64,000 bases of DNA. Source: Myxococcota bacterium. GTDB lineage: Bacteria; Myxococcota_A; SURF-8; G963663525. Positions 2,886 through 61,597 of the stretch are shown piece after piece. The translations under genes were made by a program, and so were the position numbers. Location of the stretch: positions 153,514-217,513 of the forward strand of contig CAXXVK010000060.1 in NCBI GenBank assembly GCA_963676915.2, read 5' to 3'. Each line of letters starts with the position of its first letter. Within the stretch, counting starts at the first letter, position 1. Below the pieces are notes generated by a model that was not told where the DNA came from, made no database searches, and saw only the letters and a program-made list of their open reading frames with translations.

Positions 2886-3362
2886 TTAGAATTGACGTTC
2901 GTACGAAGATTTTTTGCTGTCTCGTTCACACCAGTAACTTTCCTGGTTTCCGGGAAAGCGTCGGGCCAGTCGGTCGCGGTTTCCCCGTCGGAACAACAAG
3001 CCGAAGGGGAGAAAAAACAGCAGATACAGGGGAATCAGCGTCAGCCATCCGGCCAGCGTTCCCAACAGCCACGCCAAAGCGCCCACCGCTTTTTCGAACA
3101 CGGCAAAACCGCTCAGAGGCGACAACAGTCCCAACACCAGCGTCAATCCGGTAAACGCGAAAACGAGGATACCCAAGGTTTCGTGAACGAACAGAAACAG
3201 CAGCGGGGCGGCGATCACTCCGATGAATCCCTGCACCAGCGCCCGGTTGATCCGTCGGGACTTCAGCTCGCGAACCCGTCGCTTCGCCGTTCTACCGCTT
3301 GGATCCCAGACACTGTAAGAGGCTTCATGGCGATCCGAAGGCTGCTCCGAGGAGGAGGACAC
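2886..3362 (-). CDS. SxtJ-like multi-pass membrane protein
   Basis: 158 aa with 3-4 hydrophobic helices and a C-terminal ...FRRGNRDRLARRF....SYW motif. It lies immediately upstream of the carbamoyltransferase. Confidence 0.6.
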   Translation of the reverse strand: MSSSSEQPSDRHEASYSVWDPSGRTAKRRVRELKSRRINRALVQGFIGVIAAPLLFLFVHETLGILVFAFTGLTLVLGLLSPLSGFAVFEKAVGALAWLLGTLAGWLTLIPLYLLFFLPFGLLFRRGNRDRLARRFPGNQESYWCERDSKKSSYERQF

Positions 3363-3365
3363 CGG

Positions 3366-3947
3366 TTAACTCGCCGGAACTTCTTGGTACGTGGATTCGG
3401 GAAGTTTTTCGAAAGCTTCCTTGCCGTGCTCGAAAATGTAGGTTTTGACCTTTTCCGGCATGGTTTCGGCCTGACGAATCAACTCGACGAAGCGGTCATA
3501 GCGGCTGACCGCCCGCGAATACCAGGCGCGGGTTTCTTTTTCCACGTAGCGATCGACGATCGGCGAGCTGGCGGCATCGAGCATGTTCACGGCCTGATTG
3601 GCGGCCTGCCATTCCTCCTCGCTGAGATTCTCGCCCAAATCGCGCACGCCCAACATCAAGGTGTCGATCCACTTGGCGAACAGTGCAGCCACCTGCTTGC
3701 GGCCTTCGTTGTCGGCCTTGCTGCGGGCCAACTGAAGGGCGTGAATATTCTCGACTTTTCCGATGCCCTGCACCACGGGAACGGCCTGGCCGTCTTTGTC
3801 TTCCAGGGTGGTGCGGCCACTGGTCATGACGACCCAGGCCGGGCGATTGCCCAGATTATCCGGGATGGTGTTTTTGGTCGTGCAGGACGAGGCCAGAAAC
3901 AGAATCGAAACGAACCAGACGGTCCAGGCGAGTCTCGCGACGCTCAT
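3366..3947 (-). CDS. Lipoprotein of unknown function
   Basis: The Met at 3947 is preceded by AAGGAG. Signal peptide with lipobox LASSC. The stop is 4 nt from the SxtJ-like start, which looks like an operon. Confidence 0.6.
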   Translation of the reverse strand: MSVARLAWTVWFVSILFLASSCTTKNTIPDNLGNRPAWVVMTSGRTTLEDKDGQAVPVVQGIGKVENIHALQLARSKADNEGRKQVAALFAKWIDTLMLGVRDLGENLSEEEWQAANQAVNMLDAASSPIVDRYVEKETRAWYSRAVSRYDRFVELIRQAETMPEKVKTYIFEHGKEAFEKLPESTYQEVPAS

Positions 3948-4124
3948 GCGGTTTTCTCCTTCGCTGACATCTACGAACATTCATGTACGTTGCATTGTAG
4001 CCAGACGCCGGGGAAGGTCAAGTCGGGTGACACCGGGACTTGTCACGGAGCGGAATATTCTGTAGTTTCAATGGGCTGGTGATTTCGATCGTTTGATGAA
4101 AACTTCAACCGGGGCAGAGCCATC

Positions 4125-5672: not shown

Positions 5673-5902
5673 GAGGCCGTTTTCGCCACACTATTTTGCA
5701 AGAAGCGTCTCGGAAGGGTAAATTTCTTTAACCTGTTGATATGTAAGCTTTTTACGGATTCGTCATTGGTTTCTGGCAAAAGACTTTGACCAAGAACGTT
5801 ATAGTGTTGGCGGTTTTCCCTTGACTTCGATCCGCTAGATACATAATTATTCCGTAATCGACCATGGGGAGTTTCTGGATTTCCAGGAGAAAGGTTCAGT
5901 TT

Positions 5903-6079
5903 ATGGCCTCCGAGGAACAGTACGAAATATTTAACGATTACTTCTCCGAAGACGCGATTGAAAGCCTCTTCGATAATCTTCCCCAAGAAACGTTGGATGA
6001 GCTTTTACAGGTTGTCCAGCTTGTGGACAAGAAAATGGGGATGTATAAAAAGAAAATCAAGGAGTTAGAGACGAAATAG
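5903..6079 (+). CDS. Small acidic protein (58 aa), hypothetical
   Basis: AGGAGA lies 12 nt upstream of the ATG, and a strong terminator hairpin follows at 6101-6141. There is no recognisable family. Confidence 0.35.
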   Translation: MASEEQYEIFNDYFSEDAIESLFDNLPQETLDELLQVVQLVDKKMGMYKKKIKELETK

Positions 6080-23641: not shown

Positions 23642-23824
23642 TTAGCCCGCATACTTCATGAGGATCGTTGCGAGACGCCGAAAACCGAAGAACTTTCATG
23701 AAGTTGGAGTGATTTTTTAACGGAAGCATACTTGACAGTATGTTGAGTATAAAAAATCGGGAAACGAATGAAAGATCAAGAGTTTTCAAGTCGTAGTAGA
23801 TTCTTCATGAATTATGCGGGTTAG
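23642..23824. mobile_element. MITE copy 1 (175-bp core 23646-23820 flanked by a TTAG direct repeat)
   Basis: Terminal inverted repeats CCCGCATACTTCATGA / TCATGAATTATGCGGG. Only about 7-8 differences from copy 2 over 175 nt. TTAG is present on both sides. Confidence 0.8.
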
Positions 23825-30397: not shown

Positions 30398-30458
30398 CTC
30401 CTCGTAACTTGCCCCAACGAACTAAAGCCAATCGACTAACTAGTAAAAAAACGATATC

Positions 30459-31145
30459 TTACGGCCATTCGATGCCGATGGTCGAATCCAGCGCCCAGTG
30501 ATGGCCGAACTTGAATGAATCGATGGGTTGGGGCAGGTTGGGAGCTTTGATACCGGTTGCGCCGTAAAGAATGGAAATCTCGTAAACTACCGCCCAGTTT
30601 TTCGAGAGCGACGGATACCAGGTTCCCGACAACGGCAGGCGAAAAAACAATTCCCCGCCATAAAGAATTTTATCGCTTAAAATCACGCCGAGTTTCGGTC
30701 CCAAACCGGCTGAAATCACCCAATGTCCGAACACCCAACGATACGCCGTGCCGAAATACGCGCCCAATCCTGCAATCACGCTGAGTTCATCGCAATGGGA
30801 AAGAGAAAAATACGGTGTGAAATCGAAGATATACCCCGATCCCCCGCGTTTGATCCCGAAGTTGAGCAACCAGCCATGGCGGTCATCGACGATCAGGCCG
30901 GGGGCTGTGTTCACCGGGTCGGTCCCCGGACCTTTGGGGGTGTATTGCAACCGGTATTTTCCCTGATACAAGTATCCTATACGCGGGGACAGTTCGATTT
31001 TCGACAGTTTTTTCTTTCTCGGATGGTTCTCTTTGGTTTCGGCGGCATATCCACTGGAGAAGCACAACATACAAACGATCATCGAGACCAGCGTGATCCA
31101 CGCCAAGCCCGGCACCATTTTCGTTTGCTTCGATCCCCGATCCAT
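30459..31145 (-). CDS. Secreted, possibly beta-barrel, protein of unknown function
   Basis: Start at MDRGSKQTKMVPGLAW... with a signal peptide ending in GYAAE. The body is Gly/aromatic-rich with alternating-polarity strands and a C-terminal aromatic residue. Confidence 0.5.
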   Translation of the reverse strand: MDRGSKQTKMVPGLAWITLVSMIVCMLCFSSGYAAETKENHPRKKKLSKIELSPRIGYLYQGKYRLQYTPKGPGTDPVNTAPGLIVDDRHGWLLNFGIKRGGSGYIFDFTPYFSLSHCDELSVIAGLGAYFGTAYRWVFGHWVISAGLGPKLGVILSDKILYGGELFFRLPLSGTWYPSLSKNWAVVYEISILYGATGIKAPNLPQPIDSFKFGHHWALDSTIGIEWP

Positions 31146-31347
31146 ATCGTACCCTATCCTTGACCGTTCGAGAAAGGCCAGTATAGAGCAAGCGCTTTCC
31201 GGCGGCAAGGAACGGTTGCCGATCATCTTTCAGACGACTTCGTCGCCGGTCTCGACTTGAAAGACTCCCGGTATTCCACGTCTCGCCAACAACGAATCCG
31301 TCTCGAAATTGCCTCGAAATCCTCGGTCGCTAATTTTAGGATAGCTT

Positions 31348-33090
31348 CTACTCGAAAGTTGCGGGCGGCTTTTCCTGGCTGCCGAACGGGTCTTCGACGT
31401 TCAGGCGTTTTTCCCGCTGTAATCGGAGTTTTTTCATGCGTCGTTTTTTGATCTGGATAACCATAAAGATCAAGAGCAGCACGGCTAGCAACGATACGAT
31501 CAATTGCATCCGAAATACTTTGTAATAGGGCAAATACCCCCAAAGCGTGTCACCTCGCACCATAACGTTGCGAATATCGAGCAGACGCTCCCGGTCTTTG
31601 GGGGAACGAATGTCCCGAGATAGCGACAAAGCGTAGTTGATCTCGTTGATGGCCAGCGCCTGATTGGTATCGTAATATACGATAGCTTTGGCGAAATGCA
31701 GGAAAGGATCGGTCAACGATTGGTCATCGGCATGGTCGAGCCGTTTGACGGCTTGCTCGTATTCGCCCATATGCCAATGGGACAACGCCGCATATCCGGC
31801 GATACGACTCATCGAATTGTCGAGAATTTCCAGTTTGGCAAGACCCAATTGTGCGTCTCGATAGCGGTTGGAATGAAAATCCGCCACGGTTCTGGCCCAG
31901 AGCGCAAAGATATCGTCCGGGTTTTTCGCTTCCCGAGCTTTCAGGCGTTTGTCGAAGTGGCGGTTGCCATCGAGTTCGAAAAACAGGTCATCGAAGGACG
32001 GAACCAGTTGTTTGTTTTTCGTCGGTTCCAGATCGTAGGCCGCTTCCAGCATTTCGGCGGCTTCCAGGTAGTTTCCGCTTTCATAGCGACAAGATCCCAG
32101 AGGAACGAAAAGCTTGCGCCGCAAATCGTCGGCCTGCCCCATGGTATCGAGCATCAGAGCTTCCAGTTCATCGCACAAACCGCCACCGGAATAGAGATCG
32201 ATCAATCGTTTTTGCAGCACCGTACAGAGGGGATAACGGCGCATTCCGGCTTTGGATATGCTTGATGCCTGATTGAAAAGTTGTCTTTTTTCAAGCAGTT
32301 GAGATGTCCAGACCAGGGTTTTGCATACCGCATGACGCGAGATCGGGCTTTCGGCCTGGTACACGCGATCGAGCAAGGCATAAGCATCTTCGCTCTTGCC
32401 CTGCAACAGATGCGTGCGCGCCATCTCGCGCATGGCGATTTCCCACAACGTTTCGTCCTCGGCTTCTTCCGTATACGGAGTCAACAGACGGACCGCCGTT
32501 TCGAATTGACCACGCTGGGTGGCCAGTGCCGCTTCGAAAATCTCCAATTGACCGAGCTTGTTTTGAGAAGACAAGTCCGAGCGCATCGACTCCCACAGGT
32601 GTGGCATGGCATCGAGGATAGCGGTTTTGTAGTAATTTTGAAACGTTAGACCGAAAGCGTCGTCGGGCCGTTGTTCGACTTTCTTTTCTGAAACATTCCA
32701 TTTCCATTTCGGCAAGCCGGGAACAGCCGCCGTAAACGCCTGCCATGCCGGAAGAATCGTTTCGGGAATCGGGTCGGTCTCGACACCAACCGCCACCGAA
32801 CCGATAATTTTTGCTCCGGAAGAGCGTTGTTGCGGATGAAGCAAGCGGAAACAAACCTGAACGTCGCTGTTTTCTTTCAGCTTCAGACAGGTTCGAACGC
32901 TGTCCTGACTGATGACGATATCGGTGAATTCACTGGTGGAAGGCAAGGCGGATTTCGCCTTATCGAAAAACCGCTGGACACCGGCCTGGCCTTCTTCATC
33001 GATGACCCAATGCGTTGTTTCTCCCATTAGTAAGGAAGGGAAAATCCACAACCCAAGTATCCCCATCCACATACCGATGAATTTCCCCAT
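31348..33090 (-). CDS. TPR-repeat protein with a signal peptide and a C-terminal TM anchor
   Basis: 580 aa with TPR-like repeats throughout, a hydrophobic helix LIVSLLAVLLLIFMVI near the C-terminus, and then a basic tail. Confidence 0.7.
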   Translation of the reverse strand: MGKFIGMWMGILGLWIFPSLLMGETTHWVIDEEGQAGVQRFFDKAKSALPSTSEFTDIVISQDSVRTCLKLKENSDVQVCFRLLHPQQRSSGAKIIGSVAVGVETDPIPETILPAWQAFTAAVPGLPKWKWNVSEKKVEQRPDDAFGLTFQNYYKTAILDAMPHLWESMRSDLSSQNKLGQLEIFEAALATQRGQFETAVRLLTPYTEEAEDETLWEIAMREMARTHLLQGKSEDAYALLDRVYQAESPISRHAVCKTLVWTSQLLEKRQLFNQASSISKAGMRRYPLCTVLQKRLIDLYSGGGLCDELEALMLDTMGQADDLRRKLFVPLGSCRYESGNYLEAAEMLEAAYDLEPTKNKQLVPSFDDLFFELDGNRHFDKRLKAREAKNPDDIFALWARTVADFHSNRYRDAQLGLAKLEILDNSMSRIAGYAALSHWHMGEYEQAVKRLDHADDQSLTDPFLHFAKAIVYYDTNQALAINEINYALSLSRDIRSPKDRERLLDIRNVMVRGDTLWGYLPYYKVFRMQLIVSLLAVLLLIFMVIQIKKRRMKKLRLQREKRLNVEDPFGSQEKPPATFE

Positions 33091-33481
33091 TGGCTTCGCT
33101 CCCGATTTTGTGCTAACATTTTACCGACGGATTTTCATGGTAGTGGATTCGCTACGATCTTCCAAGGGAAAATCCGCAGCCTGACAAGGATGGGGCGGAT
33201 TTTTTCATGCGTTTCATGCCTGATGGACTCTTTTCGTCAGGGCGGCGGGTGATACGACGGGAAATGTAGTGCGGGTTCACATATGGCGAGAATTCGAAAA
33301 CTTTGGCTGCAAGCGGGGTTTTTTCGTGGATTTTCGCAGGACTTTCTACGTGCGAAATGAAGGAATTCCGGCCAAAGGTTTGCGGTATCGTGTGCCTTCT
33401 GATAGAATTATGTGCTGAGAATTACAAAAAATTCAGGTTTGCCCCGGATTTTTACCGTGCTCTTCCAGGAGTGGAAACCTC

Positions 33482-36400
33482 ATGAAAATTACATGCGGAA
33501 CCTGCTCCGCCAAATTTAAAGTGGCGGACAGCAAAATTCCGGACAAAGGGGTCGTGATCAAGTGTCCGAAATGCGGATCACCCATTCAAGTGGAAAAAGA
33601 AATTCCCGCCGAGGAGGCCGCACCTCAGGATCAGACACTGGACCCGTTGGATCTTCCTCCCGCGCCGGATTTCAATTCGGATTTGCCTCCGGCCGAGGAT
33701 GTCGATGTGTTCGGCGCTGCAATTCAGGCTCCTCCCGAGGATGACGACGATGCTGGCGGGGTCACGTCCGGGACATTGTCGGATACGCAATTCAGTTTCG
33801 ACGATCTCGGTCTGGACGAGGATCTCTCCCGTTCTGTGGACGATGACGATCTGTTCGATACCATTTCACCCGATTCGATTCCGACGGCCCCGGATATTTC
33901 CCTGGGCGATACGGAAGCACCCGCTTCCGCGTCGGCAGATGGCGTTGGGAAACTCGGTGCGACGAAATACGAGTTGGAAACCGGTTCGCAACAGGAAGAC
34001 ACCAGTTCTCTGACCCGTTTCGATCCCCTTCCCGCCGACACGCAATTCGGTGAAGATGCTACGGATTTCGGAGAAATCGATTACACCGGCAGCGATCAGG
34101 CTACCCAGGCGGTGTCCGACCCGCAAACCCAGATCGAGTCGGCCGAAGGTTCTCAGACGTTCAGCGAAATGGATATCGACCTTCCGGCTCCACCGGAAGA
34201 AGGCGGTCTGACCCAGTTCGCATCCCCCGACCAGTTAACCGGATTCGGCGAAGAAGATACGGATTTCGGTGCCGGGACGGACGTTACGGATTTCGGTGGA
34301 CGAGGCAACGAATTCACGGATTTCGGAGATCGCACGAATTTCGGCGATGTCGAGCAGTTGGGAGATGAACTTCTCGATCACCTGACCGATTTCGACACCA
34401 AAAAGACGTTTTCGGTCAAACGTCCCAGTGGGGATGTTGTCGGTCCTTTCACCGAAGATGCTATCCTGGACATGCTGGCTCGGGGCAAGCTTTCCGGCGA
34501 GGAACTGGTTGGTAAAGAGGACGACTGGACCCCGATCGTGGAAGTCGAAGCTTTTTCGGATGCCGCGCTTCAGGCACGTTCCCAGTTGGACTCGACCGAG
34601 GCCGTGATTCCGCAGGAATCGGAATCTCTGCTGAAAGAACGGGAACGCATTCAGGACGAAGCCAAACGCCGACGTCGGGCCGGTTCGCTCGATGTCGTTA
34701 CCGGCGCTCGCGAAGGCAAACGACTTTTCAGCGGGAAAATTCTGGTCGCGCTACCGGTGATTGCCGTTCTGGCATTGGCCTTTGTATACTTCACGTTCAT
34801 CGAAGAACGAGGCATCATCGACATTCTCACCGGCCACGATCCGTTGGAAGATGCGTACAAAGTCCGACTTTCCAACAATTCTCCGGCCTTGGTGTCCAAG
34901 TACAGCGAATACCTTTCGTTGATGTACAAAGACGACTTCCCCAGTTTGAGCAAAGCCCGCGAAAAGACACTGGAGACGCTCCAAGCCGAAAGCCCGTTCT
35001 GGGGAGAGGAACTGTTCCATGCCCTGCTTCATCTGGCGAATACGGAAATCATTCGCCGCTATGGTGGAGGCGTGCAGCTTCAACAGGAAGTCCAAAAGTC
35101 CGATGAAATCCTCCGGGCGGCGCAGGTGGTCAAAGACGACCCGGAATTCCACTTAGCCTTCGGTTCCTGGAATCTATGGAAACGGCATTACGATACTGCG
35201 AAAAAAGAGTTCACCGAAGCGCTTTCGCTGTTCGGAAATCCCAACCACGAACGAACCTTGCATTTGCTGGCGGAAACCTACATTTTCCTTCCCGAAAAAG
35301 AACAGGGCTACCAGCACCTGAACAAACTCATCGAAAGCGACAAGGCCAACGCTCGAACGTATATCTTGTACGGATTGCTCTACGTTTCGGAAAAACGATT
35401 CGAAGAAGCTCGCGATCAATTCAACAAAGCACTTGAAATCGACCCGGAAAACCTGGACGCCCAGATCGAACTGGCGGCCACGACCATGTACCTGCCGCAG
35501 GGAGAATCCAAGTCGATCAAAGAGCTGACCGAGATCAAAAACAAGAATCCCGATCGTCTTGCCCGTCGGCAACTGGGTAATATTCATTACTACCTTTCTC
35601 TTGTCTACAAACGCCTCGATCAGTTGTACAAACAACAAAAAGAGTTGTTGGCCGCAATCGAGCAGGAGCCGGACAACTACATTTACCGTTTGAAGCTCGG
35701 GTATTTCCATCTCAACAAGCACGAGTACGAAAAAGCGGAAGAGCAGTTCGAGCACTGCAAGCTCAAAGCGCCGAAGGTAGCGGCCTGTCACGTCGGACTG
35801 GGAGAAGTGTTCCTGGCGACCAACCGCCCCGACCAGGCGTTATTCGTCATGGACAAAGTGGTCAAATGGGCCGCCAACGATTCCGAGGTTCATTTCCTTT
35901 TGGGTCGATCCTACGAAGGAATTTTCAAGCCGAAACTGGCGCTTGCGGAATTCAAAAAAGCCATGCAGCTCGATGGCAACCAGGTCCGGTATTTCACCCA
36001 CACGGCCATGATGCACCTCAAGGATGGCAACCAGGTGGAAGCGGGTAACATGATTCAGCAGGCGTTGATGAAAGACCCGAATTCTTCATGGGTTTTCAAT
36101 GCCTTGGGTGAAATGCAACTCTACCAGAAAGACAACGCCACGGCGATCGAATCGTTCAAGGGAGCGATCAAAGCCAATCCGAAATTCATTCCGGCATTGT
36201 ACAATCTAGCCAACCTGTATCGCGACCAGGGACTGTACAGGCAAGCGATCGAAGAATACGACAAGGTGTTGGCACTCGACGAAAAGAGCGACCGTGCCCA
36301 CTACGGTCTGGCAACGACGTATCTTGCACAGAAGCAACTCGATAAAGCCGTGGCCGAATTCGAACGGGCTTTGAGTCTCAATCGCCGCAATGCCGATTAT

Positions 36401-37159
36401 TATTTCAATGCCGGTCTGGCCTACTACCAGAACGGCGAACGCGACGAAGCCCAAAAGCATTTCAACAAGGCCATCGAGCTTGCACCCAACCACAGTGGAG
36501 CGATGTTCTGGCGAGGCCGTGTCTATGCCGACCTGCTTCAATTCGACAAAGCCGTGGAAGCCTACGAGGCCGCTATTCAGCTCGACAAGGAAAACCCGAA
36601 AATTTACTACCACTTGGGAATGGTTTTCGAGCAACAGGACAAACCCGGCGACGCCATCGATCAATTCGATGCGGCATTGAAGTTGAAACCGGACTTCCCG
36701 GATGTTTACGTGCGCCTGGGACTGGTGTACATGAGCCAGAACCGGATCATCCAAGCCATCAAGATGTTCAAAAACGCGCGTGACCTGAAAACCGGCGACA
36801 TTGTGGCTACATTGGGTTTGGGGGATTGTTACGTCAGTCTCCAGCGCTACCAAAAAGCTATCAAGCTGTTCAAAGAAGCCATCGGTCGCAATCCCAATAA
36901 TGCTCAGGCGCATTTCAAGCTTGGTGACGCCTACGCCCAGCAGTTGAAGTTCAAGGCGGCTCTACCCCATTTGAAGCGGGCTTTCAACCTCGATCCTCTC
37001 GATCCACAAACCAACCGGCAGTTGGGTTTCGTGTACAAAGGACTGGATCAGAAAGCGTTGGCGATCCGTCATTTCCAGAATTATCTGGGACTGGAAGAGG
37101 AAAACAACGAGCAGGAAGATATCGAGGAAATCATTCTTCGAATGCGCAAAAACCTGTAA
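33482..37159 (+). CDS. Giant MJ0042-type zinc-ribbon / acidic repeat / GYF_2-like / TM / multi-TPR protein
   Basis: N-terminus MKITCGTCSAKFKV...KCPKCGS, a D/E-rich region with TDFG repeats, a GYF-like block (VGPFTEDAILDMLARGKLSGEELV...WTPI), one TM helix, and then about 20 TPR repeats. Confidence 0.85.
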   Translation: MKITCGTCSAKFKVADSKIPDKGVVIKCPKCGSPIQVEKEIPAEEAAPQDQTLDPLDLPPAPDFNSDLPPAEDVDVFGAAIQAPPEDDDDAGGVTSGTLSDTQFSFDDLGLDEDLSRSVDDDDLFDTISPDSIPTAPDISLGDTEAPASASADGVGKLGATKYELETGSQQEDTSSLTRFDPLPADTQFGEDATDFGEIDYTGSDQATQAVSDPQTQIESAEGSQTFSEMDIDLPAPPEEGGLTQFASPDQLTGFGEEDTDFGAGTDVTDFGGRGNEFTDFGDRTNFGDVEQLGDELLDHLTDFDTKKTFSVKRPSGDVVGPFTEDAILDMLARGKLSGEELVGKEDDWTPIVEVEAFSDAALQARSQLDSTEAVIPQESESLLKERERIQDEAKRRRRAGSLDVVTGAREGKRLFSGKILVALPVIAVLALAFVYFTFIEERGIIDILTGHDPLEDAYKVRLSNNSPALVSKYSEYLSLMYKDDFPSLSKAREKTLETLQAESPFWGEELFHALLHLANTEIIRRYGGGVQLQQEVQKSDEILRAAQVVKDDPEFHLAFGSWNLWKRHYDTAKKEFTEALSLFGNPNHERTLHLLAETYIFLPEKEQGYQHLNKLIESDKANARTYILYGLLYVSEKRFEEARDQFNKALEIDPENLDAQIELAATTMYLPQGESKSIKELTEIKNKNPDRLARRQLGNIHYYLSLVYKRLDQLYKQQKELLAAIEQEPDNYIYRLKLGYFHLNKHEYEKAEEQFEHCKLKAPKVAACHVGLGEVFLATNRPDQALFVMDKVVKWAANDSEVHFLLGRSYEGIFKPKLALAEFKKAMQLDGNQVRYFTHTAMMHLKDGNQVEAGNMIQQALMKDPNSSWVFNALGEMQLYQKDNATAIESFKGAIKANPKFIPALYNLANLYRDQGLYRQAIEEYDKVLALDEKSDRAHYGLATTYLAQKQLDKAVAEFERALSLNRRNADYYFNAGLAYYQNGERDEAQKHFNKAIELAPNHSGAMFWRGRVYADLLQFDKAVEAYEAAIQLDKENPKIYYHLGMVFEQQDKPGDAIDQFDAALKLKPDFPDVYVRLGLVYMSQNRIIQAIKMFKNARDLKTGDIVATLGLGDCYVSLQRYQKAIKLFKEAIGRNPNNAQAHFKLGDAYAQQLKFKAALPHLKRAFNLDPLDPQTNRQLGFVYKGLDQKALAIRHFQNYLGLEEENNEQEDIEEIILRMRKNL

Positions 37160-39900: not shown

Positions 39901-39964
39901 GCAATGTCGCCACATGCTATAGAGCTGATTGGTAAGCCTTAGTTTTTATTGCTATTTTTGGCTA

Positions 39965-40098
39965 TTGGTTCCAACGAACCGGATAACGAAGGGTGGCACG
40001 GGACAAGCGACGTGAAACGTCTGCTTGCCCGTGTACAAACAATGTTCATGGGCAACCTGCGGTTGGCCCATGGCACACCCTTTGAACACCAAAACCAA
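39965..40098 (+). ncRNA. Structured RNA element, copy A (conserved core 39985-40080)
   Basis: About 95 nt are nearly identical to 49176-49270. Three hairpins are conserved and one has a compensatory apex. The G-U pairs fit the plus strand. It lies between the ftn stop and the 40189-40228 terminator. Confidence 0.5.
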
Positions 40099-40188
40099 AT
40101 AATAACTGCTATAAGACAAACGTGAGGAGCAGGACGAGAGCCATGCTCCTGCAAAAAGTGTAACCCCTCGAAAATTCACTGCAATTTA

Positions 40189-40228
40189 AAACGCGCCGGG
40201 TGGATCAATCCTCCGGCGCGTTTTTTTC
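40189..40228. terminator. Bidirectional intrinsic terminator that overlaps the last codons of the minus-strand OMP gene
   Basis: AACGCGCCGG / CCGGCGCGTT stem with TTTTTTT on the plus strand and TTTTAAATT on the minus strand. Confidence 0.7.
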
Positions 40229-45030: not shown

Positions 45031-45047
45031 ATTCCCAAAACAACGGG

Positions 45048-45231
45048 TTAACCCGCATTATTCATGAGGATCGTTGCGAGACGCCGAAAACCGAAGAACT
45101 TTCATGAAGTTGGAGTGATTTTTTAACGGAAGCATACTTGACAGGTTGTTGAGTATAAAAATTTCGGGAAACGAGTGAAAGATCAAGAGTTTTCAAGTCG
45201 TAGTAGATTTTTCATGAATTATGCGGGTTAA
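45048..45231. mobile_element. MITE copy 2 (176-bp core 45052-45227 flanked by a TTAA direct repeat)
   Basis: TIRs CCCGCATTATTCATGA / TCATGAATTATGCGGG. Near-identical to copy 1. Confidence 0.8.
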
Positions 45232-48675: not shown

Positions 48676-49134
48676 CATTTCAGGGTCTGCACTTGCCTTG
48701 ACCGCAGTCGGTCGAATAGTGGAAAACTTGAGTCTTCTCCAGTATTTTTTCGAGATAGACCATTGGATGATCGTCTTCCTGCATTATCCGATTTCCCATT
48801 TAAAGATAAAATATATGAATGAATGTATCTTTTGTGAAATGATTGTGGAAAAGAAAAATACCCAGTTAAAAAAGTAAACAAAGTAGCACTAACTTTCTTA
48901 TTTTATTAGGTTTTTTGCCTTTATTTCACTGTTGAAAACCCACTTTCAACGCATTTTGGAAAAATCTTTCCACATTTTTTCCACAGGGTTACATTCCCAC
49001 AACTGATTGATCTCTTTTCGAAAATGGCAATAGCTGTCTAAATTTTTTTGCAAATACACACGAAAAATAAATAAGGCTTCTTTGGGGAATTTCCCTATGG
49101 TGAATTTTGGGGAAAACACGTTTTCTGGATAGAT

Positions 49135-49315
49135 ATAGCCGGTATGATTTGGTTCCAGCGATAGAGAATCCTGGAAACGAAGGGTGACACGGTCCAAGCG
49201 ACGTGAAACGTCAGCTTGCCCGTGGTCGAACGATGATCGTGGGCAACCTGCGGTTCACCCATGCCACCCACAACGAAAAGGGTAAGGAGCGCTAAAGGCA
49301 AAGTATAACGGCTAT
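49135..49315 (+). ncRNA. Structured RNA element, copy B (conserved core 49176-49270)
   Basis: The core matches copy A. It is enclosed by the helix ATAGCCGGTAT (49135-49145) / ATAACGGCTAT (49305-49315), 10 of 11 bp. Confidence 0.45.
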
Positions 49316-49365
49316 GGCACTGTCGAAACTCATCCGAACACCGGATATTTCATAAAAATCGTCGC

Positions 49366-49548
49366 TAGCCCGGATAATTCATGAGAAATCGTCACGAGAC
49401 GCCGAAAACCGACGATCTTTCACGGAGTCAGGGCGGTTTTCACCTGCAGTCAAACGGAACAATCTGTCGAGGATGAAAACCGGGAAACCGTTGAAATATC
49501 AATAGTTTTTAAGTCATAGCAGGTGTTTTATGGTTTTTTCTGGGTTGC
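49366..49548. mobile_element. MITE copy 3, a diverged/decayed member (left flank CTAG)
   Basis: The left TIR CCCGGATAATTCATGAG is intact. Internal blocks CGAGACGCCGAAAACCGA, GGGAAAC and AAGTC-TAG-AG are conserved. The right TIR has degenerated to ...TTTATGGTTTTTTCTGGG. Confidence 0.55.
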
Positions 49549-52237: not shown

Positions 52238-54283
52238 TCAATATCGTTCGAAATTATCGTCCGAAACATCCGGATCGGTTTCGAGATGAAGTTGTATGCC
52301 TTTGCCTTTGTTTTGGCCGTTTGCCTTGTTTGATGCGTAGGTTTTGTGCTCAATATGAGCGACTTTCTTTGGTTGTCGCTGCTTCGGGTTCTCATCGTCG
52401 TAATAAAGATGGTGATGGTCCAACTTGAAGAAAGCCACCTGCTCGTTCATGCTGATCGCCTGGCTCGATAATTCTTCACTGGTGGCGGCCATTTCTTCGG
52501 TGGCGGAAGCGTTTTGTTGGATCACCTGGTCGAGTTGATGAATCGCTTTCGTCACCTGCTCGATACCATTGGCCTGTTCGTTACTACTTGCGTTGATTTC
52601 CTTCACGAGGTCTGAGGTTTTCTGGATCACCGGCACGATTTCGCCGAGCAGGGCACCGGCTTTTTCGGAGATCTCTACACTGGACACCGACAACTCGCCG
52701 ATTTCCTTGGCGGCGCTTTGGCTGCGTTCAGCCAGCTTGCGGACCTCGGCGGCTACCACGGCAAATCCCTTGCCATGCTCTCCGGCGCGGGCGGCTTCGA
52801 TGGCGGCGTTCAACGCCAGCATGTTGGTCTGTCGGGCGATCTCTTCGATAATGTTGATCTTCTCGGCGATACTTTTCATGGCATTGACGGTTTGAGACAC
52901 CGCCGCACCACCTTCTTCGGCATCCTCAGCCGCCTTCTGGGCAATAGAAGCCGTTTGCTGGGCGTTATCGGCATTTTGCTTGACTGTGGAACTCATTTGT
53001 TCCATCGAACTGGAGACTTCCTCGACGTTCGATGCCTGTTCGGAAGCACCTTGGGCCATCTGTTGTGAAGAAGAATTGACCTGTTCGGAGCCGACTGAAA
53101 CCTGTCCTGCTGCGTTTTGAACCTCGGTGACCACTCTTGTCAGGTTGCCTACCATGACCTTTAAGGAGTTGGCGAGATCTCCGATTTCGTCGCGCTTGTC
53201 GATATCGATTTTGACCTTCAGGTCACCGTTGGCGATTCTATCGGCAATTTGCGATAAGCTGTTGATAGGACGGGAAAATCCACGAGCCGCGAACAGTGCA
53301 AAACCGGTAATCAACAACGATATCACGACCAGCAATAAAATGACGTCGTTGCGCATGGCATACAGCGGAGCCAGCGCTTCGGCCTCGTCGATCTCCGAAA
53401 GAATCACCCAGTCCACGCCTTTGATATCGACTTTGGTAAAAGCTCCATACACCGGAATCCCCCTGTAATCGGGATACAACTCGGTGTCACTGAAACCTTT
53501 CATCGCTTTTTCGACGCCGGCGGTCTGGATTTTCTTCTTCAAGATGGTGCTGTCCTGTTCGAAACGACTATCCGAGCGCATCTTGTAGTCCGCGCCCACA
53601 AGATAGGTTTCTCCCGACTCTCCCATTCCTGTTTTTTCCTGCATGATTTCGTTGATTGCACCGATCGGCATTTGTAAGGCAACCGCGCCAAGAACTCTGT
53701 CATTTTTCAGAATGGGAGCAGCGATAAACGATGCAGCCACACCGTTGCTTGGAGCGTAGGATTCGAAATCCGTCAGTAGGATTTCACCGGACATGGCATT
53801 TTTAAATGTCTTGGCCAATCCACTGCCACGATACTGACCTTTTAACAGGTTGCTCGCAAAATCGGCCTCGTGCTCGACCGTAAACACCACATCGCCTTCG
53901 GCAGTGATCAGAAACAGGTCATAGTACCCGTATTCTTTCTCGTAATGAGAGAGCAGGTCTTTAAAGGTGGTATCGGCTTTTTGATACAGTTCCCCTTCAA
54001 CTCCACCGTTTTTGAAAGCATGTTCATACGTTTGTAGGGCTTCGGAAATATCGTGAAATGCAGCAAGTACGGTAACGTCGCCGTAGCGTTCTTCAAACCA
54101 GCTTTCGATTTGATGCCTTTTGATTGTCATAATCGCTTCGAGCTTGCTTTTAACATCGTCATCGATGGTCTTGCTTGTTTGCAGGTAGTTCGAGGTAGAC
54201 GCCAACAGCATCGGGATCAATCCGACCAGTAGGAACATCAGGATCAGTTTCGGGCCGATCTTCAAATTGCGAATGAGATTCAT
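52238..54283 (-). CDS. Methyl-accepting chemotaxis protein 1 (Cache-type periplasmic sensor, HAMP, MA domain)
   Basis: Two TM helices flank a ~290-aa Cache-like domain. A HAMP domain follows, then the signalling-domain hairpin core [41 protein letters not shown]. Confidence 0.93.
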
Positions 54284-59245: not shown

Positions 59246-61597
59246 CTAGAAGGCTTCGAAATCTTTGTCGATGGCGTCATCGCTTCCGTCGAGAAGCAGT
59301 TTTACGCCTTTGGTGTCTCCGTTGCCGTGGTTGGAAGGCGGCGACTTTTTGCTGCTTGTGCGTGAAACGGGGCTTTTCATGCTTTGCCTGAAAGCCGACG
59401 AACCGGATCGCTTGATCTTGAAGAACGAGGCCGATTGCAGCAGTTGCTCGCCTTGACCAGAGAGTTCTTCGCTGGTGGCGGCCAGTTCCTCGGTGGAAGC
59501 GGCGCTTTGCTGGATCACCTGGTCGAGCTGGTGAATGGCCTGGGTTACCTGCTCGATGCCGTTGGCCTGTTCCGAACTGCTGGCGTTGATTTCACGCACG
59601 AGGTCGGAGGTTTTCTGAATCACCGGCACGATCTCGTTGAGCAATCCACCCGCTTTTTCGGCGATTTCCACGCTGCTTTCGGAGAGTTCGCCGATTTCTT
59701 TGGCGGCAGTCTGACTGCGTTCGGCCAGCTTGCGGACTTCGGCGGCCACCACGGCGAATCCCTTGCCGTGTTCCCCGGCGCGGGCGGCCTCGATGGCGGC
59801 GTTCAGCGCCAGCATGTTGGTCTGGCGGGCGATTTCCTCGATGATGTTGATTTTTTCGGCGATGCTCTTCATCGCTCCGACGGTTTGTGTTACCGCCGCG
59901 CCGCCTTCTTCGGCATCTTCTGCGGCTTTCGAGGCGATGGACGCGGTTTGCTGCGCGTTGTCGGCGTTCTGCTTGACGGTCGCGCTCATTTCTTCCATCG
60001 AGCTGGAAACTTCTTCCACGCTCGAAGCTTGCTCGGAAGCGCCCTGCGCCATGGATTGCGAAGACTGGTTGACCTGCTCCGCTCCGGTAGCTACTTGACC
60101 GGCTGCCGATTGCACGTCTTCGGCAAAGCGGGTGAGATTGCCAATCATGTTGTTGATGTTGTCGGCGATTTTCTCGAAGTTTGCGGCGATTTCAGCCGTG
60201 TCGTTATCCGAATCGGCCACTTGCACGTCCACGTTCAGATCGCCTTCGGAGACTTTACCCAGTGCAGTAACCAGCTTGCCGACTTCGCCTTCCTGGTAAT
60301 TGGCCTGCTTTTTCGCCACTCGCGCCGCTTCGCGAACGGCGGTTTGATCGATGATGAATTCAAACGCCGCCACGGCATTGCCGCTTTCGTTTTTGATCGG
60401 CGTGGAGATGTAATCGATTTCCATCCGATGATCGCCCGGTGTGGCGACGGTGGAGCTTTCCGTCATTTTACGGGTGTTCATCGCTCGTTCGCTGGCGCAG
60501 TTGGCCGTCTGGCATTCTCCACCTTTCAAAGAATGGTAGCATTTGGTTCCCAGCATTTTCTCCGGTGTGCTTCCCGAAATATTCGCCAATTGCTTGTTGG
60601 CAAACAGAATATTGAATTCCTCGTCTACGCCGAGCACGGGAATCGGCACGTTGTCCAGATGTCCAACCAGTTCGTCGGTAAGACCGTTGATGCCGTCCAC
60701 CATTTTCATCCAGGCGCCTTTGTATGCCGAAGAATCGCTGCGTTCGGTCAGACGCCCGGCCTTGACGTTGGCGCTCATACCGTTGACGTCATCCAGCAGT
60801 TTTCGCAATACCCCAATGACTTCGGCAAGTGCCGCCATCATCTGGCCGATTTCGTCCAGGCTTTTATCGGTGATTTCCTGGTCGATTTCTCCGGCGGCCA
60901 TCGCGGTCATCATGGACGAGGCATTGTTGAGCCGTTTGGCGATGGTGCGACTGATCCACCAGGCGAGTGCTGCGCAAAACAGCGTCAAAATGAGAGAAAA
61001 CACCAAAATGCGGTTGCGCCAACCCGCGATTTCCTCGTTGACGTCTTCGATATACATGCCGGTCCCCACAACCCATTGCCAGGGTTCGAAATACTGAACG
61101 TAGGAAATCTTCGGCACGATGCGGTTTTTCTGGTCTTTGTACTGCCACATGTAATCGACGAACCCAGCTTTGTCGCTCAAAGCCACGTCCACCATTTCCT
61201 CGAACATCTTTTTGCCGTGCGGGTCTTTGTTGTCCCTGACGCTTTTGCCTTCGAGCGCTAGGTTGAATGGGTGCATGACCATGATGTGGTCGGTATCGTT
61301 GATCCAGAAATAGTCATTCATTTCGGGACCATAGCGCACAGAACGCACGGCTTCGGCGGCTTGTTTGCGGCCTTCTTCATCGGTGAGCGTTCCGGCCACA
61401 ACCATGTCATGATAATGCTTGACGACAGATACAACGACTTCGGTCTGCTCCTTTATTTTTTCACGTTTCTTGTCTACCAGTCCGTCGCCGAACTGGGGAA
61501 CGATCCAACCCATGATGGAGCCAATGAACAGGGTAATGATAACGAAGCTCAATGAGAGGATTTTCCAGCCGATCTTCAGGTTCGAGAAGAATTTCAT
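59246..61597 (-). CDS. Methyl-accepting chemotaxis protein 4 (Cache-type sensor, HAMP, PAS-like, MA domain)
   Basis: Periplasmic Cache-like domain ([15 protein letters not shown]...), a HAMP domain, a cytoplasmic Cys-rich PAS-like segment, and the same signalling core. Confidence 0.93.

Follow-up and report, generated by a model that had tools for sequence, protein, structure and literature searches.

A stretch of 64 kb from a Myxococcota bacterium (the window, meaning throughout the whole stretch that was analyzed) carries the same foldable sequence twice, which raises the question of whether this sequence is an RNA gene or a repeat spread by mobile DNA. The original prediction described a structured RNA and raised a mobile origin as a possibility, and this possibility is the best reading here. 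Both copies are probably a MITE-like, non-autonomous dispersed palindromic repeat of ~175–185 bp in Myxococcota, and the family most likely adds to a common class of elements and is not a dedicated RNA gene.

Anatomy of the two copies

The shared core spans 39985–40080 in copy A and 49176–49271 in copy B, with ~95 nt in each and 85% identity. The near base-for-base match noticed earlier stands, with 14 differences over 93 gap-free positions (39985–40077 vs 49176–49268), and the local alignment pairs 39965–40077 with 49149–49268. A 29-nt pattern for the shared hairpin matches only two sites in the 64 kb, where none is expected by chance. A covariance model scores both copies on the + strand and detects no third copy in the window, even with its speed filters off. 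The flanks had been described as unrelated; instead, both copies carry diverged inverted arms of one larger element. Comparison with copies in the related MAG CAXXHC01 defines a unit made of a 5′ arm, (T)ATAGCNGTTGCTATTTGATTTTAGCGATAGAAAACCCTGGAAAC, the core, and a 3′ arm, ...ATGATCGCTAAAACCAAATAAGAACNGCTATA. Its parts lie in the window as follows:

39940–40113, + strand: copy A, full element of 174 bp (BLASTN and flank comparison with subfamily-1 copies of CAXXHC01), laid out as a diverged 5′ arm, the core, and a 3′ arm ending ...AACTGCTATA
39985–40080, + strand: copy A, core (covariance model, 107.8 bits; minimum-free-energy fold; family pair counts)
39991–39995 / 40076–40080: copy A, helix P1
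39997–40033: copy A, hairpin 1, CACGGG/CCCGUG stacked on CAAGC/GCUUG and GACG-UGAAA-CGUC
40034–40046: copy A, linker
40047–40072: copy A, hairpin 2, CAUGGGC/GCCCAUG stacked on AACC-UGC-GGUU
49134–49315, + strand: copy B, full element of 182 bp (BLASTN to subfamily-1 copies spans 49132–49315)
49135–49160 / 49290–49315: copy B, terminal inverted repeat of 26 nt, 73% complementarity
49176–49271, + strand: copy B, core (covariance model, 99.2 bits; alignment to copy A)
49182–49186 / 49265–49269: copy B, helix P1
49188–49224: copy B, hairpin 1
49225–49237: copy B, linker
49238–49263: copy B, hairpin 2

Across subfamily 1, both window copies included, the arms read (T)ATAGCNGTTGCTATTTGATTTTAGCGAT... 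and ...ATCGCTAAAACCAA..AACNGCTATA and are mutual inverted repeats; the subfamily consensus ends are TATAGCNGTTG... and ...CAACNGCTATA. The arms of copy A are too degraded for an inverted-repeat search to detect them as such, and the ends of this copy pair in the full-length fold (z = −7.0).

Both copies sit between convergent genes, as had been reported. Copy A follows the ferritin gene ftn (Pfam Ferritin, E = 2.6e-42) and has a convergent 534-aa ORF on its other side; copy B is flanked by an HTH-domain ORF and, convergent with it, cheB. Between ftn and its convergent neighbor, a G+C-rich hairpin at 40189–40228, bordered by AAAA and, at its opposite end, by TTTTTTT, resembles an intrinsic terminator that would work in both directions; a simple terminator scan overlooked it because its loop exceeds the 3–8-nt limit of the scan. 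No tRNA or tmRNA was found in the window by ARAGORN.

Fold of the core

The core is a nested palindrome, in which helix P1 (GGGUG/CACCC) closes two adjacent and mutually similar hairpins. The tip of hairpin 1 is variable (a GAA triloop, GACG-UGAAA-CGUC, or a purine-rich GGAG-UGAAA-CGGA), as is the linker between the hairpins, which measures 9–16 nt. Against dinucleotide shuffles, the fold of copy A has z = −6.0 to −7.0 and that of copy B, which was also folded at full length, z = −2.7 to −3.7.

The segments CACGGG, CCCGUG, CAUGGG, and CCCAUG allow two alternative pairings. Since hairpins 1 and 2 are alike, segment 2 is able to pair with segment 3, generating the central GCCCGUG...CAUGGGC hairpin of the original prediction. 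The other helices proposed there are all present: GGGUG/CACCC as the outer helix, and CAAGC...GCUUG and AACC-UGC-GGUU as hairpins. The central hairpin, in contrast, is not the fold that has been kept: among 99 distinct model-aligned copies, the informative cells in which the two hairpins differ support local pairs 128 times (43 + 85) and cross pairs once. On a clean 41-row alignment, the three-way junction has 96.0% of cells paired and nine pairs with double changes, values that 0 of 500 shuffles attain. The earlier architecture has 92.8% of cells paired; double changes are never seen in its 2:3 helix, and the companion 1:4 helix contains a C-A mismatch in 35 of 39 rows.

Compensatory changes are found in P3a, where C-G becomes G-C (7 of 39 rows of A11, with a 61:34 split in the larger set), and in P3, where U-A becomes C-G and G-C becomes U-A; a single P3 pair occurs as U-A, C-G, and U-G within the SURF_8 copies. 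P1 changes from GGGUGG/CCACCC to GUGUGG/CCACAC. Because the local pairs hold, more cells are paired, and double changes occur, the predicted two-hairpin fold, with the outer helix closing both, is better supported by the aligned sequences than the central-hairpin fold, which is sterically possible in nearly every copy. Compensatory change of this kind does not distinguish a functional RNA from palindromic DNA.

Spread of the family and evidence for transposition

A two-copy RNA gene, or an sRNA derived from the 3′ UTR of ftn, does not describe the family, which is dispersed, with dozens of copies per genome. The genome-collection scan (one genome per species, relaxed hairpin 1 pattern; 59 loci returned), combined with the covariance model, gives a count of at least 29 copies for CAXXHC01, contained in 21 eight-kilobase loci. 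Nine copies are found in OZ223209.1, seven in QZKR01 (SURF_8), and two in CAYTHG01, next to the two in the window. All four MAGs are labelled Myxococcota or Myxococcales; real matches cluster in them, whereas chance-like matches are singles in unrelated phyla. With the other hairpin as its anchor, a metagenome scan found 85 loci, most with a shorter variant, and ~70 metagenome contigs contain the core. Plasmids and phages gave no match to copy A by BLASTN, nor did viral contigs in three pattern scans. Judged from these sequence matches, the family is specific to a Myxococcota lineage. The literature searched yielded nothing specific on a myxobacterial MITE of this kind.

The core lacks long arms in some genomes, and the same core is found inside elements with weakly alike termini. 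In OZ223209, CAYTHG01, SURF_8, and some CAXXHC01 loci, it has other flanks or occurs in tandem arrays of 143-nt units. One such array in OZ223209.1 (L020, 133–562) consists of three tandem units with 95% identity, each formed by one core and a 48-nt spacer, and the unit extends into the upstream ORF, of which it contains the final 15 nt and the stop codon. An arm-less subfamily (L012, L047 505–605, L054, L037, L032, L076, L100) has a conserved ~45-nt 3′ extension, ATTCRTYYGTGTTTCAAAAATCAYYACTTGTCACGGCCACCC, that ends with a second GCCACCC half-site. In the OZ223209 copies, a second GGGTGGC-like half-site precedes the core by ~15 nt.

Evidence for transposition comes from the sister subfamily found in metagenomes. 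Its termini, CAATGCYGTTGAMTTAAG and CTTAAKTCAACRGCATTG, are inverted repeats of 18 nt with CA...TG ends, the second end being the reverse complement of CAATGCYGTTGAMTTAAG. The direct flanks are identical at 9 or more of 11 bases in 25 of 51 distinct copies and at all 11 in 14 copies, against a maximum of 7 of 11 for control flanks taken 18 nt further out. These 11-bp target-site duplications differ between copies (for instance, GGGAGCGAGGG, CCTCCTCTCGC, and GATTCGACGGT). The sister terminus CAATGCCGTTGACTTAAGG matches the E. coli IS4 IRR, TAATGCCGATCAGTTAAGG, at 14 of 19 positions; in the sequence fetched for E. coli K-12, IS4 has ends TAATGCCAGTCAGTTAAGC and TAATGCCGATCAGTTAAGG and a 12-bp duplication. 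The repeats and duplication by which the IS4 family is recognized (CA/TA-AATGCC...TTAAGG, 9–13 bp) are seen in the metagenome subfamily. Based on its IS4-like inverted repeats and 11-bp target-site duplications, we conclude that the sister subfamily moved by cut-and-staggered-join transposition.

In the window subfamily, the longest candidate for a target-site duplication is a TA, which would flank TAGC...GCTA and is inseparable from the inverted repeat itself. Direct repeats of 11–12 nt with one mismatch occur in a few copies at about the rate of chance, which we estimate at roughly 5 in 48 copies, and were rejected as a long duplication. Aligned by hand, the window-subfamily termini agree with the sister terminus at ~8 of 18 positions, mainly in a short GC-GTTG block. 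The window and ~1 Mb of fetched loci yielded neither an autonomous IS with matching ends nor, by tblastn with E. coli InsG, a transposase.

Window positions 30457–36872 are syntenic with a CAXXHC01 locus (L049, contig_1) at 73–81% nucleotide identity, which places the window organism as related to, but distinct from, CAXXHC01. The element is present in a convergent intergenic gap of this locus, and the orthologous window gap (31045–31349) has no copy. A remnant in the empty gap was sought and rejected, the best local alignment scoring 22 against a shuffle maximum of 26. The intergenic DNA is too diverged for the exact insertion boundaries to be aligned.

Nature of the element and its relatives

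Neither strand of the element appears to encode a protein. Copy A has an open plus-strand frame that a stop interrupts in copy B. A minus-strand ORF is open in both (75 and 68 aa), and its translation under purifying selection had been named as a finding that would argue against a structured RNA. Codon positions 1, 2, and 3 account for 6, 4, and 4 of its 14 differences, and 11 of 31 residues are changed, with no sign of such selection; it has no Pfam match, and a profile search with its conserved part found no homologue among 5.8 billion protein clusters. With the plus frame stopped and the minus ORF devoid of selection, Pfam match, and homologues, we take the element to be non-coding.

Bacterial MITEs include Correia/NEMIS in Neisseria, RUP in Streptococcus pneumoniae, ERIC, and the IS231-derived MIC231 in Bacillus cereus. 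The family resembles them in being 100–200 bp long and non-coding, in its terminal inverted repeats and dozens of dispersed intergenic copies, in the strong hairpins predicted if it is transcribed, in its insertion polymorphism, and in the duplications of the sister subfamily. Unlike in bacterial MITEs, conservation peaks in the internal two-hairpin core rather than at the termini, no cognate IS was found, none of the plasmid and phage records searched is similar in sequence, and the window subfamily lacks a detectable duplication. IS4 of E. coli is approached by the metagenome subfamily in its terminus (14 of 19 positions) and in a duplication of 11 bp, near the 12 bp of IS4; unlike IS4, the element contains no transposase gene, and no homologue of the IS4 transposase is present in the fetched DNA.

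The main rival to a MITE-like repeat is a core that acts as a functional structured RNA, either a three-way-junction ncRNA or a cis-element (a 3′-UTR stabilizer, a protein-binding RNA, or a ribozyme, for example), multiplied together with mobile DNA and held by selection on its fold. We regard this as unlikely. In its favor are the high stability of the predicted structure (z = −6 to −7), the compensatory changes that preserve pairing in P3a, P3, and P1, the conservation of the core in subfamilies whose ends differ and in at least four MAGs, and a hairpin 1 tip that varies like RNA expansion segments. No Rfam family accounts for it, which agrees with the earlier failure to name one: Rfam 15 at gathering thresholds returns 0 matches anywhere in the window, and E-value mode around both copies gives weak matches, none spanning the core as a whole. 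A match to Atu_C9 (20 bits, cutoff 40) was discarded, as it falls solely on the terminator at 40189–40228. The G-U pairs from which a plus-sense RNA had been deduced lose their meaning at the level of the family, where 28 G-U pairs stand against 35 A-C mismatches in a count that leaves out one lineage-specific U-G pair; the plus strand has no G-U excess beyond one lineage. In the genome set, 19 copies have convergent and two divergent contexts, and the copies between tandem genes, three co-oriented and five anti-oriented, show no orientation bias; the apparent co-orientation with the gene upstream simply follows from the layout of convergent spacers. Both strands of the metagenome subfamily score almost equally against the covariance model, which identifies this subfamily as dyad-symmetric DNA. 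The commonest base reaches a mean frequency of 93–97% in columns of stems, against 71% in unpaired internal ones, a comparison partly biased by the search patterns, although helices that the patterns leave unfixed behave alike. Loops vary freely in sequence and length, and stems conserved while loops and linkers drift are the opposite of what most functional RNAs show. Further points against an RNA are the absence of a sigma-70-like promoter from the stretches scanned immediately 5′ of the two copies and the presence of the element in L049 but not at the orthologous window locus. An RNA function is unproven and of modest probability, and nothing here points to a selected one.

Two similar palindromic units side by side in the core are also what a REP/REPIN-type doublet would look like, moved by a RAYT (Y1/HUH) acting on single-stranded hairpins, with the arms as lineage-specific additions. 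Like REP, BIME, and REPIN sequences, the units are extragenic, paired or clustered, and placed at gene 3′ ends, where they are potential stabilizers of upstream mRNA. Copies prefer extragenic 3′–3′ spaces and, together with other palindromic repeats, form clusters and tandem arrays, GTAG-headed REP-like hairpins are present in the same MAG (CAXXHC01), and the window subfamily has no detectable target-site duplication. This origin is nevertheless improbable. The sister subfamily has precise 11-bp duplications and IS4-like CA...TG termini, and Y1 transposases produce no such duplications. Unlike REP units, those of the core are longer, closed by an outer helix, and devoid of a conserved GTAG head; the local hairpins are conserved, not a REPIN-style long hairpin between units. 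No RAYT-like ORF was found in the fetched loci or the window by a hand-written motif pattern, which makes this weak evidence.

The prospect that non-autonomous copies carry a guide-RNA scaffold (IscB omega-RNA/HEARO, TnpB reRNA, or IS110 bridge RNA) is very remote. The element shares with HEARO and TnpB reRNA a structured, RNA-like sequence of similar length (~100–180 nt), many copies, and an association with mobile DNA. The HEARO- or omega-RNA-like origin considered in the original prediction finds no echo in Rfam, since HEARO is not matched in the window at the gathering threshold or near the copies in E-value mode, and there is no conserved placement beside a transposon end or a guide segment. 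The 117 neighboring ORFs show no enriched Pfam family, and the best 25 of their 164 families include no transposase, nuclease, or RT; the absence of IscB, TnpB, RT, or a recombinase beside the copies, among the families listed, is weak evidence. An ORF between two inverted copies in L061, considered as a transposase, reads by sequence motif as an RmlC-type dTDP-sugar epimerase. The 11-bp duplications of the sister subfamily fit none of these guide-RNA systems.

Against a MITE-like repeat stand the degraded arms of copy A, the lack of a long duplication in the window subfamily, the absence of an autonomous IS or a transposase from the ~1 Mb of fetched DNA, compensatory changes that a functional RNA would show equally, and the core itself. 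A centre more conserved than the ends is unusual for MITEs, and a conserved core with varying ends is not predicted by internal deletion from one IS. Possible causes are nested elements, descent from related ISs with subterminal hairpins in common, or an independent role of the core, and the pattern leaves room for the last of these. A ~95-nt core that is an independently selected module, as RNA or ssDNA, with its own function and acquired by elements with unrelated ends, would account for a centre that is conserved more strongly than the termini; its function would be transcript protection, binding of a host or transposon protein, or catalysis. We consider such a module quite unlikely.

For a MITE-like repeat, the behavior of its relatives suggests that the window subfamily would have spread like the sister subfamily, by a transposase acting in trans and recognizing the ends. 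The window copies would be old, diverged relics in 3′–3′ intergenic spaces, where they are harmless to transcription. Their hairpins may have been kept because the spread of the element, or its parent IS, needed them as DNA or as a single-strand structure. Read-through transcripts of ftn, if they contain the element, would have a very stable fold and may incidentally block 3′ exonucleases.

If the reading as a MITE-like repeat holds, such sequences would be masked as repeats in Myxococcota annotation, not listed as sRNA or riboswitch candidates, and could serve as insertion-polymorphism markers for an uncultured lineage. For specialists in mobile DNA, they offer a core that stays conserved between subfamilies that differ in their ends and, apparently, in their insertion signatures, with other small elements inserting at the tips of its hairpins. 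An RNA-level role of the core, if true, would mean a widespread new structured RNA carried by transposons.

In two loci (L070 167–650 and L121 9634–9920), metagenome-subfamily copies are interrupted by small insertions ending ...GTAC, located at the tips or feet of hairpins (beside TAAGC or TTAGCCC) and in some cases accompanied by a duplicated TAGCCC. The inserts contain hairpins of the type GGATTCC-N-GGAATGACG, and their positions suggest that another element targets the hairpins of the metagenome subfamily. The flanks of CAXXHC01 copies (for example, L001 5610–5710, L012 6900–8000, L029, L030, and L053) contain clusters of other short palindromic repeats in a BIME-like mosaic, among them GTAG-headed REP-like hairpins (GTAGGTCGGG-N-CCCGACCTAC), GGAGCAAGTCTCCCGACTTGCTCC, and GGTTCAGGTCGGGAGACCTGAACC.

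A pair of similar window segments, 52727–52870 and 59720–59836 (also like L134), was rejected as a repeat, being paralogous coding sequence that is read as the signalling domain of a methyl-accepting chemotaxis protein. A second repeat family, ~183 nt long and unrelated to the first, has terminal inverted repeats of ~20 nt (TTAGCCCGCATAATTCATGAG... and ...TTCATGAATTATGCGGGTTAG) and looks like another MITE. Its copies are:

23642–23824: window, 183-nt repeat
45046–45230: window, 183-nt repeat
49365–49546: window, 183-nt repeat
2963–3144 and 5853–6032: locus L013, 183-nt repeat
3847–4026: locus L043, 183-nt repeat
917–1097: locus L023, 183-nt repeat

One of the window copies of this second family lies ~50 nt downstream of copy B.
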